Source: a virus. From it: a stretch of 15,862 nucleotides of DNA. A program made the translations under genes and the position numbers. Positions 2,141-9,673 of this stretch are shown here, in pieces. The DNA is taken from the UHGV virus genome UHGV-0076425. One strand, 5' to 3'. The number at the start of each line of letters is the position of its first letter. Position 1 is the first letter of the stretch. A model generated the notes under the pieces. It made no database searches, was not told the origin of the DNA, and was given only the letters and a program-made list of their open reading frames with translations.

Positions 2141-2899
2141 TCATTGATTCACCTCCTGCCTGTCGTCCGGCATTCGCTCACTACAGCTTATCCAACCATC
2201 CGGAGTTACCGGAGAGTTGCCCGATAGTGCATTCTGCTCCAGTGATGCTTTTACAAACCACGCTGCCTGAACTATAACGCCATGAATCCAGCGCAAATCA
2301 GCATCGCGATCTTTCTTTTTCATCTTTTCGCCACTTAAGGCCTTGCTTATGTGGCTGCGTACCAGGTCTTCATGTAATTCCTTCGCCTCCTCAATGGTGA
2401 AACCACCAGGCAGAAGAGCCGGAGTTACCGGAGAGCTGGTTGACGCTTCCGGGATTTCCCGAAAATTATTGGTTGACGAATTCTTGCTTTCCCGAAAGTT
2501 TCCGGACTGAAGCATGGCGGTGCGGCAGGCGTTCCATATTTCGGCAGCAATATCGCGCTCGCTATCGGTTAATTTGTACGTGGAAACATAGCCAGAGAGC
2601 ATTTCTACGTTTTCCGGAGTTGCTTCTTCCGGCACTACCGGCGCTGGCGGGGCGGCAAATAGATATCCGCCAAAGTCAGGAAGCTCTCCAATGGCCTGTA
2701 CGAACTTTTGTTTGCCTACGTCAACTCCTAATGGGTAATGAGCTATAATCTTTGCCACCGGCTCTGCTTCCAGCGATACCAGTGCAATTCGTGCCAGTTC
2801 TTCCGCTTCTTCTGCTGGCAGTACAACGTTGCTACCCGGTCCGTATGTTTCGCGCCACTGCTTGATTGTCAGCAGTCGCCCTTTGGTAATAGTGATCAT
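2141..2899 (-). CDS. Hypothetical phage protein with internal sequence duplication (SPVTP repeats); C-terminal WIS...P motif reminiscent of DUF551
   Basis: 252 aa ORF; start ATG overlaps the stop of the upstream gene (ATGA); contains a 17-bp exact direct repeat at 2200..2216 and 2419..2435. Confidence 0.6.
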   Translation of the reverse strand: MITITKGRLLTIKQWRETYGPGSNVVLPAEEAEELARIALVSLEAEPVAKIIAHYPLGVDVGKQKFVQAIGELPDFGGYLFAAPPAPVVPEEATPENVEMLSGYVSTYKLTDSERDIAAEIWNACRTAMLQSGNFRESKNSSTNNFREIPEASTSSPVTPALLPGGFTIEEAKELHEDLVRSHISKALSGEKMKKKDRDADLRWIHGVIVQAAWFVKASLEQNALSGNSPVTPDGWISCSERMPDDRQEVNQ

Positions 2900-3411
2900 G
2901 CCGCGTTTCCTTCTTTCTTATTAACAATCACACCGTCATATATTTCATTAAGGTGCCCTCTCAACTCCATGCGCCTTAATGCAGATAACATGTAATCGCA
3001 TTCAACCTGCTTATTCCCAGTAAATGGCTTATCGTCAGGATTACCCCAACAGCAATTACCCCTGGGCCATCCATGTACTTTCCGTACTCTTCCGTTAACA
3101 ACGTGAAGTAATCCCCAGCCGGGAGGTAAATCCTCAACTGAAATAATTTCCGGCTCACTAATAAAGAATCGCCAGTCGCCCATGCCAAGTGAGGGATTTT
3201 TACGGAAACGCTTTTTTCTATCTGCCAACAAGTCAGCACGAGAACACTTCGCCTCTATCAGGCATGATGCTGAATTTCTGAATCCCATAGCATCTGGCTG
3301 TTCTCCGGTACTGGTTACAGCAACAAAGCGGTCATAAAAGCAAACCTTGAACCCGTTGCGCTTAAGGAACTTGTACGCAATCTGACAGAGTTCGTGGTGT
3401 GTTAACGCCAT
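2896..3411 (-). CDS. Putative PD-(D/E)xK-type nuclease-like protein
   Basis: Track ORF 2896..3444; the ATG at 3411 is preferred because AAGGAGAG lies 6 nt upstream. Motif PD-x15-IEAK fits the PD-(D/E)xK catalytic signature; Cys/Trp-rich C-terminal segment. Confidence 0.5.
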   Translation of the reverse strand: MALTHHELCQIAYKFLKRNGFKVCFYDRFVAVTSTGEQPDAMGFRNSASCLIEAKCSRADLLADRKKRFRKNPSLGMGDWRFFISEPEIISVEDLPPGWGLLHVVNGRVRKVHGWPRGNCCWGNPDDKPFTGNKQVECDYMLSALRRMELRGHLNEIYDGVIVNKKEGNAA

Positions 3412-3412
3412 A

Positions 3413-3961
3413 TCACTCTCCTTTGATGCGAATGCCTGTTGCAATGCTGTTTATGATGCTGTCAGTGCATGGGGTAGAAAGCTGGGCATCTCCAGCAATT
3501 TTCATGACCTCAACATCTGCATATCGAATACCGAGGTGTATCAGACCGGCTATGCCTGACTTAAGCCGAGCATTTTCCATAAATAGAACTTTTGCCCGCT
3601 GTTTTTCTGCTTCAAGCTCAACACGCAGCTTCCCTACCGTTAGCGCAATATCCTCGTTCTCCTGGTCACGGCGTTTGATGTATTGCTGGTTTCTTTCCCG
3701 TTCATCCAGCAGTGCCAGCACGGTAGCCGGGTTAGCCTCTGCTATGAATTCAGCGTTTGCATAAGCCTGAGCATCTGATTCAATCAGGCAGTTAACATGA
3801 CATTCCGCAATCACGCCACCGGGTTCTCCTTTCCATTTTTGACAAACAAAAACTCCTGTTAAATTGCCGTGTTGGTTAACAGATGTATGCCCTACGATGT
3901 AGCTTCCTTTAGTTGCTTTCTCTGCCTTTTCACGCAGTACCTGATAGTTAATGTTGCTCAC
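3413..3961 (-). CDS. Ea22-like early-left phage protein (coiled-coil central region)
   Basis: 182 aa; GTG start at 3961 with a strong AAGGAGG Shine-Dalgarno 6 nt upstream; central charged heptad-like region (LLDERERNQQYIKRRDQENEDI...). Family assignment is from memory of ead/Ea22-like proteins. Confidence 0.5.
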   Translation of the reverse strand: MSNINYQVLREKAEKATKGSYIVGHTSVNQHGNLTGVFVCQKWKGEPGGVIAECHVNCLIESDAQAYANAEFIAEANPATVLALLDERERNQQYIKRRDQENEDIALTVGKLRVELEAEKQRAKVLFMENARLKSGIAGLIHLGIRYADVEVMKIAGDAQLSTPCTDSIINSIATGIRIKGE

Positions 3962-4197
3962 TGGTTGCCTCCTTTACGGATCTGCGCTGCGATGCACGAA
4001 AAAAAAGACTTTCGCGTATGACTGTTAAGAGCTGGCGCGAACGCCGCGTTAAGAACGGCGGCATCACAGCCGTCATCGATATAGAGCGCAATTTTTTTCT
4101 CCAGGCGTGCTTTGGCTTCCTGCAACTGCATATCCCGGCACGCACGCGGGATATACTCAGCAATTTGAGCGATAGATTTTTCGTTCTGTTTAAACAT
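3958..4197 (-). CDS. Hypothetical small phage protein (79 aa)
   Basis: ORF overlaps its neighbours by a few nt on both sides, consistent with an operon; no recognisable domain. Confidence 0.45.
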   Translation of the reverse strand: MFKQNEKSIAQIAEYIPRACRDMQLQEAKARLEKKIALYIDDGCDAAVLNAAFAPALNSHTRKSFFSCIAAQIRKGGNQ

Positions 4198-4393
4198 GCT
4201 TCACCTCGATAGGCTTGATGGTATCGATCAGCAGTCGGCGGCGAGTATTTTCTGCAAAGTGGCGGCGTCCGGTTTCTTTGTGGTAAAACTCGTTTTTTCC
4301 GACGACCCACATCCGCTTTGTCTGGTGCAGTTTTTTTACCTGCGGACCGTCTCGGGTGATAACAATTCCTGTATGAGTTTTTATCACGCTCAT
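4190..4393 (-). CDS. Hypothetical small basic phage protein (67 aa)
   Basis: ATGA overlap with the upstream gene stop; basic composition; no recognisable domain. Confidence 0.45.
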   Translation of the reverse strand: MSVIKTHTGIVITRDGPQVKKLHQTKRMWVVGKNEFYHKETGRRHFAENTRRRLLIDTIKPIEVKHV

Positions 4394-4752
4394 TTTTTAT
4401 TCTTCGGTGCTTTCGGCATTACTGCCCAGTGAGTGATATTGACGTTTTCAAGGTCCCCGACCTGAAATGTCCACTGCCATTCTCCGGTTTCTTTTTGTCC
4501 CCAGGTGTACCAGAGAGAACGCCAGCCAATCAGCCAGCCTTCTCCATTAGCATCAAATAACAGAACACTTTCATTTGCTGGCGGCAGTTCAGCTGACACT
4601 GGTATTACTTTGTTTTCCAGTGCTGTACATTTAGCTTCAAGCGCATCGAATTTACGTACCAGGTATTCAGCATCTGTTTCATTCACTTTCAGATCTCGCG
4701 GTACACATCTCCCACGAAGAAACCCTTCCATTTCGAAAACATTCATGCGCAT
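4390..4752 (-). CDS. Hypothetical phage protein, DUF551-like C terminus (THW..P.P)
   Basis: 120 aa ORF; the second in-frame ATG (4746) overlaps the stop of the HD gene (ATGA) and may be the true start; Trp-rich C-terminal motif. Confidence 0.55.
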   Translation of the reverse strand: MRMNVFEMEGFLRGRCVPRDLKVNETDAEYLVRKFDALEAKCTALENKVIPVSAELPPANESVLLFDANGEGWLIGWRSLWYTWGQKETGEWQWTFQVGDLENVNITHWAVMPKAPKNKK

Positions 4753-5279
4753 TTGCGTAACTCCGATAACTCGTTAAAACGTTCCATAAACATCCCGTAG
4801 GCATGGCCCGGTGCCTGTGGAATCACTTTGAACATCTCTGTTGCCGGGATACCTTCCAGTACAGGCCAGAAAGAGCCATCATCAAGCCCGAGATCGCGGC
4901 GTTCGGTTGCCAGCATAATGAGATCGGCATATTTCACTGGCGTGCTCATAACAGGAGGTAACCCGTATTTCTCACGGATTACGGCGTCTATTTTTTCTTC
5001 CATCCGTTTATAGTCAGGAAGAAGGCGTTTCAGTGGAGCAGGGATGTCCTGGCAATACGCTTCTGTTGCATCATGCATTAACGCTTCAAAAGCAAATTCC
5101 TGCGGTACCAGCTGGCTGCAAAGCACCGCATGTTGGGCGACGCTGTAGAAGTGCGAAAGATGACCGGCAAAGCGACAGATATTTGAAAGGGAAACCGCGA
5201 TATCGTTAATATCGATGTCGTCTTTATTTATCTTGTCATAATAAAAATGTTTCCCGGAAAAAGTCTTAATAAATGACAT
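4743..5279 (-). CDS. HD-domain metal-dependent phosphohydrolase
   Basis: Track ORF 4743..5348; the ATG at 5279 is preferred (GGAGAA Shine-Dalgarno 7 nt upstream). Motifs H..H (HLSHFYSVAQH) and HD (MHDATEAY) plus a downstream Asp match the HD superfamily metal-binding pattern. Confidence 0.7.
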   Translation of the reverse strand: MSFIKTFSGKHFYYDKINKDDIDINDIAVSLSNICRFAGHLSHFYSVAQHAVLCSQLVPQEFAFEALMHDATEAYCQDIPAPLKRLLPDYKRMEEKIDAVIREKYGLPPVMSTPVKYADLIMLATERRDLGLDDGSFWPVLEGIPATEMFKVIPQAPGHAYGMFMERFNELSELRKCA

Positions 5280-5321
5280 TTTGTTCTCCATGTTATATGC
5301 GCTGCACCGCTCTGAATTTTG

Positions 5322-5371
5322 ATTGCAGCAATCCAGCCCATTTGACATGGGATGATTGCTGCAATTTTTTT
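5322..5371. other. Perfect 12-bp inverted repeat (ATTGCAGCAATC / GATTGCTGCAAT) with nested 5-bp stem, followed on the plus strand by T7
   Basis: Read directly from the sequence in the 90-bp gap between the rdgC-like stop and the HD gene start; looks like a plus-strand intrinsic terminator, or an mRNA hairpin or protein-binding palindrome. Confidence 0.5.
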
Positions 5372-6287
5372 AAGTTGTTGGATTTTGGCTTTTATCTTCT
5401 TTGTAAGAAAGAAGGTCACACATCAAATTAACTACCTTGCTGAATTGGAAAAGGTCAGTGCCAGTCTGATGACGCCACTGGAATGCTTTATCATCTTCAT
5501 CATTAAATGTCTGAGATTGAGTATTGATGCGCGAAAAATGGAAATTTTCGGTAAGAATGAAGGTCACACCGCAACCGGATAACTCCATTTTATCAGCAGT
5601 GAAACTACTACTAAGGCTATCGGCCAGTTCGCTTTGAATTGACTCATGCTCAGCTGAGTAGCGAATAATTTCCTTTTGATCTGCGTAGCGTGATAGCTGA
5701 ATATAATTCCCGACAGTGAATCCTTCAAATGCATTGGCTGCACCATTGATGTAGTTCTTCAGGCGTGTAGTCAGTCCATTCTTGATATCACTGATGTTGA
5801 TTGTTTCTGTTTTTACTGAACCGACAACCTTAATCAGCATTGCGCATACCATACCGGCTATTATTTTATTGGTTGTGTTGATTACCAATAATTTCTCATC
5901 AGTGCTGTACAATACAAGAATCAGCGTAGACTTAACAAATGCCTGTTTGCATAGATCTACTCGTACGTTATCAATAATGGCCAGTCGTTCGGCACGCTTT
6001 AATTTATTCCCGGACATATTTTCGATTGTTTGGATTCGAGAATTAGCTTCTTTCATGACGACATGTCGGGGAATTATTTTCTGATCATGACGGATTACCA
6101 TTGCGTACCCACCAGATATCGGAGTTACCAGTTCACCAGTGACAGGATTCTCTACAAAAGAGGACCGTGAAAATTCTGTTTCCCCGATTTCAGAATAAGG
6201 GAGTTCGAGAAGATGCCCTTCAATAGCCTGTATACTAGGTAATGTTGCTCGGTACACAATTGCGTTACGAAATTTTGGTAATTTCAT
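5370..6287 (-). CDS. rdgC: RdgC-like recombination-associated protein
   Basis: Track ORF 5370..6443; start chosen at the ATG at 6287 (GAGGAAAA Shine-Dalgarno). This gives about 305 aa and an N terminus MKLPKFRNAIVYR that parallels E. coli RdgC (MLWFKNLMVYR); the longer ORF would run through the upstream terminator and hairpin. Confidence 0.7.
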   Translation of the reverse strand: MKLPKFRNAIVYRATLPSIQAIEGHLLELPYSEIGETEFSRSSFVENPVTGELVTPISGGYAMVIRHDQKIIPRHVVMKEANSRIQTIENMSGNKLKRAERLAIIDNVRVDLCKQAFVKSTLILVLYSTDEKLLVINTTNKIIAGMVCAMLIKVVGSVKTETINISDIKNGLTTRLKNYINGAANAFEGFTVGNYIQLSRYADQKEIIRYSAEHESIQSELADSLSSSFTADKMELSGCGVTFILTENFHFSRINTQSQTFNDEDDKAFQWRHQTGTDLFQFSKVVNLMCDLLSYKEDKSQNPTT

Positions 6288-6321
6288 TCTATTTTCCTCT
6301 GCACAAGATATTAGTTTCTCC

Positions 6322-6410
6322 ACAAAACAGAGAAGAACACCTGCGGTGGCAGCCGCCCGGATGGATTGGGTTATGAGCCCGTCGTCCGGTGATGCTCTTC
6401 TCTGTTTTGT
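6322..6410 (-). promoter_or_regulatory. Long-range perfect 15-bp inverted repeat (ACAAAACAGAGAAGA ... TCTTCTCTGTTTTGT, 59-nt spacer) immediately upstream of the rdgC ribosome-binding site
   Basis: Seen in the sequence; would form a large stem-loop in the leftward transcript between the leader terminator and the first early-left gene. Confidence 0.5.
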
Positions 6411-6457
6411 AAAAAGAGCGGTACCAGCCGGAAGCAAGGGCACAAACTGGTACCGCC
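6411..6457 (-). terminator. Intrinsic terminator within the leftward leader (tL-like)
   Basis: Minus-strand RNA: GCGGUACCAG, 20-nt loop, CUGGUACCGC, then UCUUUUU; 10-bp GC-rich perfect stem with a U-tract. Confidence 0.55.
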
Positions 6458-7958: not shown

Positions 7959-8528
7959 ATGAGGCTAACCGTGGGTAAGTATCACTGGAAAGTAGAAAAA
8001 CAGCCTGAGTGGTACGTGAAAGCTGTCAGAAAAACTATCGCAGCGTTGCCGGGTGGTTACGCTGAAGCAGCTGACTGGCTGGATGTAACAGAAAACGCAT
8101 TATTTAACCGCCTTCGTGCCGATGGCGATCAGATTTTCCCGCTGGGATGGGCAATGATTTTGCAACGTGCTGGTGGAACTCACTTCATTGCTGACGCTGT
8201 GGCGCAGTCTGCAAATGGCGTCTTTGTGTCTCTTCCTGACGTCGAGGATGTGGACAACGCCGATATTAACCAGCGTCTGCTGGAAGTCATTGAACAGATC
8301 GGCAGTTATTCCAGACAGATTCGTTCAGCAATCGAAGACGGTGTAGTGGAACCGCATGAGAAGACAGCAATTAACGACGAGCTGTACCTCTCAATTTCGA
8401 AGCTCCAGGAGCATGCAGCACTGGTCTACAAAATCTTCTGCGCTCCAGAAAATAGTAACGCCCGCGAGTGTGCAGCTCCGGGCGTCGTGGCGTCGATTGC
8501 TTCTGGTTGTGGAGAAACTAACGCATGA
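7959..8528 (+). CDS. CII-like regulator (YdaT family) candidate
   Basis: 189 aa ORF second in the rightward operon; family assignment from position and memory only; alternative GTG start at 7971 has a better GAGG Shine-Dalgarno. Confidence 0.45.
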   Translation: MRLTVGKYHWKVEKQPEWYVKAVRKTIAALPGGYAEAADWLDVTENALFNRLRADGDQIFPLGWAMILQRAGGTHFIADAVAQSANGVFVSLPDVEDVDNADINQRLLEVIEQIGSYSRQIRSAIEDGVVEPHEKTAINDELYLSISKLQEHAALVYKIFCAPENSNARECAAPGVVASIASGCGETNA

Positions 8529-9673
8529 ATAGTTTAACGGCAAATAACCGTTTGTCGCAACAGCTGGTGGTCAGCGTCGCTGAACACCTGTTGTTACGGC
8601 ATGAATGCAGATTACCAAATCACCTGGCTGTAAGTAACCACAGAGAACTTTACCTGACTGTGGGGGGCGAGTTGTGCAGGAACTTAACCGCTGGTTTCGT
8701 GACGGAAGAGGACTTTATGTTCATGTTATTCGTTGGGAGCCAGAAACACAGCGCGTTATCTATCTTCGCAAAGACTACCAGCATGAGTGCTTTAGTCCTT
8801 TGTGGAAATTCAGGCGTGATTTTGTTGAGTGTGAAGGACCACCAGCACATTGATTCTGCCATTCCGGGACGTTACACTGTTCAGGCACCTTATAAAGCGG
8901 GTGTCGGGATTGGCGTCCTGGAATTGCATACGGCGACAATTGGCGCGTTAGCGTCTTTTTTGTTGCTACAACTCAGCTATACCCAAATTATGGTGGGCTG
9001 GGTGGGGGCACCGAAAGGTGCGCCGGTTTCCGTATGCGCCGGTTACGCCAACCCTGCTCAGTTCACCACCAGCGAAATTGGCGTTTCCGGTGGTGGAAGT
9101 TATCCATTGCATACGGAGGCTGCCATCATGGCTACGATCCCAACCCTCACTCAACCTGAAATTGCCATCGTTGATGGTCAGGCTGTTACTTCATCCCTGG
9201 CTGTTGCCAACTTCTTCTCCAAACGTCATGACGATGTACTGAAAAAGATCCGCACGCTTGAATGTTCCGCATCATTCACTGCCCGCAATTTTTCGGTGAG
9301 TGATTACACCGATTGCACAGGCCGCAAACTACCTTGCTATCAAATAACCCGCGACGGCTTTGCGTTTCTTGCTATGGGTTTCACGGGTAAACGTGCTGCC
9401 CAGTTCAAAGAGGCATACATCAATGCCTTTAACCAGATGGAAAAACTGCTTTCAAAGCCATCCACGCTGAGCGATGCCGCAGATAACGCCAGCGTGCTTT
9501 ACTCCCACCTGTCGGTAATCCACAAGGTCTGGCTGCAGCAGCTTTATCCCATGTTGGCAAAAGCCGAATCCCCGCTGGCTGTAAGTCTGTATGACCGCAT
9601 CAACGACGCGGCGCTACTGGCCAGTCTCATAAATTTGTCGCTGAACCCTTCAGAGGTAAGGGGGCGCAAATGA
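8525..9673 (+). CDS. Rha-family phage regulatory protein; true start uncertain (alternative ATG at 9128)
   Basis: Rha-domain signature (VTSSLAVANFFSKRHDDVLKKIRTL...) lies at residues ~205-300 of the 382-aa ORF; Rha domains are normally N-terminal, so the ATG at 9128 (GGAGG 8 nt upstream) may be the real start. The upstream 600 nt are stop-free in this frame and the ATG at 8525 overlaps the preceding stop (ATGA). Confidence 0.55.
   Translation: MNSLTANNRLSQQLVVSVAEHLLLRHECRLPNHLAVSNHRELYLTVGGELCRNLTAGFVTEEDFMFMLFVGSQKHSALSIFAKTTSMSALVLCGNSGVILLSVKDHQHIDSAIPGRYTVQAPYKAGVGIGVLELHTATIGALASFLLLQLSYTQIMVGWVGAPKGAPVSVCAGYANPAQFTTSEIGVSGGGSYPLHTEAAIMATIPTLTQPEIAIVDGQAVTSSLAVANFFSKRHDDVLKKIRTLECSASFTARNFSVSDYTDCTGRKLPCYQITRDGFAFLAMGFTGKRAAQFKEAYINAFNQMEKLLSKPSTLSDAADNASVLYSHLSVIHKVWLQQLYPMLAKAESPLAVSLYDRINDAALLASLINLSLNPSEVRGRK

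Follow-up and report, generated by a model that had tools for sequence, protein, structure and literature searches.

The PD-(D/E)xK endonuclease MmcB is induced by the SOS response, contributes to tolerance of mitomycin C and cisplatin, and has been proposed to act as a partner of translesion polymerases (PMC9578287). MmcB proper is chromosomal, SOS-regulated and found mostly in alphaproteobacteria (PMC3424549, PMC9578287). The MmcB-like family (Pfam PF06319, formerly DUF1052; COG5321), of which 3dnx (SPO1766) is the structural representative, is classed as PD-(D/E)xK and is related to archaeal Holliday-junction resolvases (PMC1189080, PMC3424549). In one of these, Sulfolobus Hjc, the catalytic residues are E12, D42, E55 and K57 (PMC6555300). 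Here we analyse a gene of the UHGV virus genome UHGV-0076425, a stretch of 15,862 nucleotides referred to below as the window. Sequence comparison assigns its 171-residue product to the MmcB-like (PF06319/DUF1052) family, where it forms part of a divergent branch that is borne by mobile elements and escapes current models; the protein fails those models, while the family profile and its relatives link it to 3dnx and MmcB. We infer that it is very probably an active metal-dependent DNA nuclease of the PD-(D/E)xK MmcB-like clade.

The original prediction, which called a possible PD-(D/E)xK nuclease with low confidence, had placed it at 2896-3411, and these coordinates coincide exactly with an open reading frame on the minus strand. 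The gene and its product are divided as follows.

2896..3411, minus strand: coding sequence of the PD-(D/E)xK protein, 171 amino acids from ATG, stop codon included
3418..3422, minus strand: Shine-Dalgarno sequence AGGAG, six bases 5′ of the ATG at 3411, read from the sequence
3247..3294, minus strand: codons of the catalytic motif (D40 at 3294-3292, E53 at 3255-3253, K55 at 3249-3247)
After K55 and down to 3220, minus strand: family signature S57-R58-x-D60-F/L61-x-x-D64, from alignment A2 (below)
3157..3411, minus strand: N-terminal restriction-endonuclease-like core, residues 1-85 (alpha1, beta1, beta2, beta3, alpha2, beta4)
2932..3126, minus strand: C-terminal subdomain, about residues 96-160 (P96-x-G-W99-G-L-L, hairpin 100-113, helix 134-150)

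Translation of 2896-3411 gives a basic protein (isoelectric point 9.0) beginning MALTHHELCQ. The ATG at 3411 was taken as the true start because of the spacing of the AGGAG, the position of the upstream TGA (3415-3413) and the homologues that start at the same methionine. The AGGAG falls within the final codons of the upstream Ead/Ea22-like gene. A longer version starting at a TTG at 3444 was rejected, since it overlaps that gene and both the Shine-Dalgarno sequence and the homologues match ATG 3411. At the other end, the TGA stop codon (2898-2896) and the start codon of the next gene overlap in ATGA.

The motif residues lie in the segments EQPDAMGF (residues 37-44) and CLIEAKCSRAD (residues 50-60). 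The spacing of 15 residues first given for these segments is actually 13 between their starts, as it is from D40 to E53. As a bare pattern the motif is no better than chance: D-x(8-25)-[DE]-x-K arose in 58% of shuffled versions of the protein and PD-x(8-25)-[DE]-x-K in 5.8%, and the latter is present in 3 of the 36 long reading frames of the window. Its significance comes from conservation and fold, not from the pattern itself, and on those two grounds the low-confidence nuclease call is supported. Conservation was scored in an alignment of 32 close relatives (A1) and in one of 61 distant relatives with 33-56% identity (A2). Homologues had been expected to keep the D, E and K, and these were near-invariant in A2, with D40 present in all 61 sequences and E53 and K55 in 60 each. 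Also conserved in A2 were D60 (61/61), D64 (60/61), E37 (60/61) and H5 (59/61), as well as P39, S57, R58, K67, R70, R81, W99, E137, R146 and R147.

The Cys/Trp-rich stretch pointed out in the C-terminal part is present in the protein (NCCWGNPDD, residues 119-127), but its cysteines are not conserved: C120 was found in 8 and C121 in 3 of the 32 close relatives, and the family has no conserved Cys cluster. A zinc-binding or Cys-rich C-terminus was rejected on this ground. W122 is invariant in close relatives only (32/32 in A1 versus 34/61 in A2). C9, C50 and C138 are kept only in close enterobacterial relatives; the wider family has V, I and a variable residue at these positions, respectively. 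Comparison with a 96%-identical copy on an IncY phage-plasmid gave a ratio of nonsynonymous to synonymous substitution rates (dN/dS) of 0.11, showing that the gene is under purifying selection. The close relatives fell into 304 clusters, and a profile search of 1.84 billion representatives recovered 3288 family members at an E value ≤0.001 and 2433 at ≤1e-10.

The structure of the protein was modelled with AlphaFold2 from the 32-sequence alignment, giving a predicted local distance difference test score (pLDDT) of 85.1 and a predicted template modelling score (pTM) of 0.79. The predicted elements were a helix at residues 5-18, strands at 23-26, 41-45 and 48-54, a helix at 58-64, a strand at 80-85, a hairpin at 100-113 and a helix at 134-150. 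The model thus has the alpha-beta-beta-beta-alpha-beta core of the PD-(D/E)xK superfamily. In its secondary structure D40 starts strand 2, and E53 and K55 end strand 3, which is the canonical arrangement; model positions and alignments agree in putting a conserved Asp where strand 2 begins and (D/E)-x-K within strand 3. The restriction-endonuclease-like core and the strand positions of the motif residues are therefore predicted as the original prediction anticipated. The N-terminal core holds the near-invariant H5, E37 and R81. The C-terminal subdomain, which is common to the protein and 3dnx, has E137, R146 and R147, also near-invariant, on its long helix and is likely to be a DNA-binding or dimer surface. 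There is nothing unusual in the architecture of the protein. Foldseek matches to the PDB were weak but nearly all to PD-(D/E)xK nucleases, and a Foldseek search of viral models matched phage proteins labelled MmcB-like.

Profile searches linked the family to MmcB. A profile of the 61 relatives matched 3dnx at E 8.6e-5. The two share the signature IE-x-K-x-SR-x-DF-x-x-D, and the motif of the protein aligns with 3dnx IECKSSRADFQAD. A second link came from an Acinetobacter plasmid protein that carries the annotation "MmcB family DNA repair protein" and lies just over the Pfam MmcB-like cut-off (23.0 versus 22 bits): it matched the family profile with 99.9% probability over 142 columns (E 6e-34). 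Homology to accepted MmcB-like members was thus found by profile and by structure. The same profile matched Hjc structures at E 0.16-0.4, and D40, E53 and K55 align with Hjc D42, E55 and K57, three of the four Hjc catalytic residues. Among the 61 relatives, weak Pfam matches were to Hjc in 26 (best E 1.3e-4) and to MmcB-like in 11 (best E 2.9e-4). The protein had no match to Pfam Hjc (PF01870), and where bit scores are given its relatives stay under the 21.1-bit cut-off. Nor did the protein reach the curated cut-off of PF06319 or of the NCBIfam MmcB model. A single-sequence search of the PDB with the protein returned only noise, and its PHROG matches were to families of 'unknown function', save for a weak match to 'DNA repair protein' at E 0.0049. 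PADLOC and PHROG searches assigned it to no curated defence or anti-defence family. These comparisons show a conserved D40/E53/K55 site and an ExK-x-SRxDF-x-x-D signature on an MmcB-like scaffold.

The gene lies in the pL operon, in the early-left arm of a lambdoid prophage, and is packed stop-to-start with its neighbours. The genes annotated around it were as follows.

50-1363: integrase
1419-1655: excisionase
1814-2092: DUF4222 protein
2141-2899, minus strand: ea22/DUF551-mosaic protein, 252 amino acids, the downstream neighbour, covering only the first 16 of 68 DUF551 profile positions
3413-3961, minus strand: Ead/Ea22-like protein, 182 amino acids, the upstream neighbour (Pfam PF13935, E 4.6e-36)
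3958-4393: two small open reading frames
4390-4752: DUF551 protein
4743-5348, minus strand: HD-domain 5′-deoxynucleotidase-like protein
5370-6443, minus strand: RdgC-like protein, 357 amino acids, extended N-terminally by about 55 residues
6962-7636: S24 repressor

To the right of the repressor lie CII-like, Rha/Ash, PerC-like, Dam, RusA, KilA-N and DUF968 genes. The Rha/Ash protein, of 382 amino acids (8525-9673, plus strand), stands just 3′ of the CII-like gene and has an Ash domain at residues 117-212 and a Rha domain at 222-307. The RdgC-like and HD-domain deoxynucleotidase-like genes stand where lambda has exo, bet and gam, and no Red-type recombinase was seen within the window. The 252-residue downstream neighbour ends ...PDGWISCSERMPDDRQEVNQ, whereas its counterpart in Stx2c_EH0430 (locus L096) extends through a longer C-terminal region. 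Because of this longer counterpart and the 16 of 68 DUF551 positions, the window protein looks C-terminally truncated, whether by a frameshift, a deletion or a mosaic joint.

The gene was found in 928 of 5426 complete Escherichia coli genomes (about one in six), in up to six copies each, with 1049 chromosomal and 248 plasmid placements. It was also present at >90% nucleotide identity in 137 phage records, mostly of Shiga toxin (Stx) phages Stx1 and Stx2, and relatives were found in 865 plasmid records and 478 IMG/VR stretches. Public records annotate it just as "hypothetical protein". Around close relatives in lambdoid phages and IncY phage-plasmids the gene order is again Ead/Ea22-like, nuclease, DUF551-type, and an Ead/Ea22-like gene precedes the close homologue in PhiR5_1, Lys8385Vzw, an IncY phage-plasmid and a Citrobacter plasmid. 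The gene occurs both with exo/bet/gam (PhiR5_1) and without them (Lys8385Vzw, and the window with its RdgC-like gene). Among more distant phage relatives the setting is a nin-like region: in a Morganella prophage the gene stands between NinB and NinG, in Serratia between the replication genes and Dam/Q, and in Pseudohongiella ahead of DUF968. Two sets of labels are probable annotation errors: 'valyl-tRNA synthetase' for the gene 3′ of the nuclease in Lys8385Vzw (L002 4513-5079), and 'adenylosuccinate synthase' for plasmid homologues in Acinetobacter and Burkholderia (H47, H48).

On some F-like (IncF) conjugative plasmids (L006-L008, L013), the leading region, which is the part transferred first, has a 172-residue relative with 60% identity directly 3′ of psiB-psiA. 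The relative's ATG overlaps the stop codon of psiA, hok/sok comes next, and about 200 plasmid records carry it at ≥90% identity. Plasmid F itself (L098) has no trace of a homologue between psiA and hok, and a classical gene name from F was therefore rejected. Phage 24B does not carry the gene either. In Stx2c_EH0430 (L096 1001-2546) the nuclease gene is absent, and a 228-residue Ea22-like protein ending ...GIRIKGE runs directly into a DUF551-type gene. The joint is the same ...GCATTCGCATCAAAGGAGAGTGATATG junction that precedes the nuclease gene in the window, and after the AAAGGAGAGTGATATG junction a 339-residue protein starting MSAITKDRLLTIKQWRETYGP is the counterpart of window reading frame 2141-2899. 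The nuclease gene thus behaves as an optional cassette running from start codon to start codon.

In 72 viral loci, 282 flanking open reading frames fell into 182 clusters. The commonest Pfam families of immediate neighbours were DUF551, Ead/Ea22, NinG, dATP/dGTP pyrophosphohydrolase, C5 methylase, NinB and SSB. A fixed partner gene (toxin-antitoxin, methylase or recombinase) was rejected, none being found among the 282 frames. Two of the inspected plasmids have umuD-umuC within 1-7 kb of the homologue (L100 4998-7875; L013 1-616), with a DinI-like gene in one; given the proposed link between MmcB and translesion polymerases this is suggestive, though there are just two cases. Next to the homologue in a Halomonas prophage (L003 6483-6848) is a weak match to the Acb2/Tad1 hairpin family of anti-CBASS/anti-Thoeris sponges, which hints at an anti-defence neighbourhood.

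We propose that the protein is an MmcB-like endonuclease, specific for a structure or lesion, that clears the element's own DNA; taken as a whole, this explanation could equally well prove right or wrong. The phage pL operon is de-repressed by SOS-dependent cleavage of the repressor. The protein would appear within the first minutes of infection or prophage induction, and its plasmid relatives in the brief early period when the leading region is expressed. Its target would be a DNA structure or lesion, such as a branched, stalled or cross-linked intermediate, and not a sequence, because the gene stands without an immunity or methylase partner and the hosts of the element must survive. Clearing such structures from the element's DNA would allow replication, recombination and packaging to proceed, in parallel with the part proposed for SOS-induced MmcB in tolerance of mitomycin C and cisplatin. 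That the protein processes the element's damaged or branched DNA upon induction or entry is the likeliest role, suggested tentatively and with rather less than even confidence. The psiB/psiA/ssb neighbourhood, umuDC in two plasmids and the SOS-inducible Stx phages that are the main carriers are consistent with it, if anecdotal.

Several observations weigh against this proposal. The protein itself had no Pfam or NCBIfam match even at E values up to 1 and no PADLOC match, and its best Foldseek match in the PDB was at E 0.077 only, with 3dnx not among the matches. There is no clear counterpart of Hjc E12, E7 being E/D in only 43 of the 61 distant relatives, and H5 and E37, conserved in the family, are absent from 3dnx. 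The geometry of the active site is inferred from alignments and predicted secondary structure, the repair role is argued by analogy to MmcB, and what the umuDC and psiAB neighbourhoods offer is anecdotal. The gene is also dispensable, as phage 24B, F and Stx2c_EH0430 exist without it. In the literature on the exo-xis region, ea22, MmcB and plasmid leading regions we found no description of this protein, nor biochemical or genetic data for any member.

Lambdoid phages carry resolvases in their nin regions, and the protein might be a classical Holliday-junction or branched-DNA resolvase for phage recombination in place of RusA or Rap/NinG. The similarity to Hjc in weak Pfam matches, profile and catalytic residues agrees with this, as do the homologues between NinB and NinG. 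RusA is, however, encoded in the window itself, and NinG occurs together with a homologue elsewhere. Because these enzymes co-exist with the protein or its homologue, its role is probably not identical to theirs; substitution for a phage resolvase is unlikely, and we consider the resolvase explanation distinctly improbable. Alternatively, the protein could be a nuclease of counter-defence or of competition between elements, made first on entry and destroying defence nucleic acid or a competitor's DNA, for example retron DNA, a guide or intermediate of a defence system, or resident prophage or plasmid DNA. Its relatives sit beside psiB, psiA and ssb in plasmid leading regions, which concentrate anti-defence genes (PMC11541004), and in early and nin regions of phages. 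Nearby genes encode Lar restriction alleviation and orphan C5 and N6 methylases, and one gives the weak Acb2/Tad1-hairpin match; the presence/absence polymorphism resembles that of accessory genes. Yet neither PADLOC nor a named anti-defence family was matched, and the family was not found to be named in the leading-region paper and its supplements (PMC11541004), its table of uncharacterised families not being covered. The closest relatives are repair and resolution enzymes, not inhibitors, and 60% identity between phage and F-like plasmid copies is unusually high for an arms-race gene. We regard counter-defence as unlikely.

The clean presence or absence of the gene at exact gene boundaries, at the Ea22/DUF551 junction of Stx2c_EH0430 and after psiA in F versus other F-like plasmids, and its highly varied genomic contexts would also suit a selfish, free-standing homing-type endonuclease cassette spreading by cutting alleles that lack it. 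Such enzymes shift specificity with their site, whereas this protein is strongly conserved over its whole length although its insertion sites are unrelated. No extra DNA- or target-recognition domain was recognisable, dN/dS is low (above), the closest relatives are chromosomal repair genes, and lambdoid mosaicism at gene boundaries accounts for the polymorphism without homing, which makes this explanation very improbable. Finally, the protein could be a non-catalytic DNA-binding modulator, acting as other exo-xis-region genes do on the lysis-lysogeny decision; it is basic and its gene lies among ea22-type genes, which are reported to affect lysogenisation (PMC7093339). The near-invariance of all three catalytic residues and of D60, D64 and E137 over thousands of relatives argues for catalysis, and plasmids, which also carry homologues, have no such decision to make. 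A non-catalytic role is hardly credible.

The fold, the motif and the nearest family were already known; what is new is a large unannotated branch of MmcB-like nucleases on mobile elements, which current MmcB-like models miss. The gene is very common, lies in regions under active study, and offers three named residues, D40, E53 and K55, for mutation. If its product aids repair or processing of phage DNA in mitomycin-type induction, it could alter the yield of Stx phages and hence of toxin; a function at plasmid entry would make it a nuclease component of the psiB/ssb establishment module. A broader and quite doubtful suggestion is that the gene encodes a conserved 'first-minutes' nuclease of temperate phages, phage-plasmids and conjugative plasmids, which would remove a block to the establishment of incoming or newly induced DNA, either a specific DNA structure or a host defence nucleic acid. 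If true, transduction and conjugation would have in common a new class of establishment or counter-defence function.

Compared with the MmcB-like family, including Caulobacter crescentus MmcB, the protein falls below both Pfam and NCBIfam thresholds, has a seven-residue K-x-F-R-x-x-P insertion ahead of G-M-G-x-x-R, and shares with its own family the specific, near-invariant H5, E37 and E137. Whereas MmcB proper is chromosomal and SOS-regulated, this branch is carried by gammaproteobacterial phages and plasmids, here under the phage pL promoter. The protein resembles archaeal Hjc (PF01870; 1hh1) in its PD-(D/E)xK core, in the alignment of catalytic residues and in being a small single-domain protein. 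With RusA and Rap (NinG) it would share the character of a small accessory DNA endonuclease of temperate phages, its own activity being predicted, and some of its homologues share their location in the nin region; its fold and family are unrelated to theirs.
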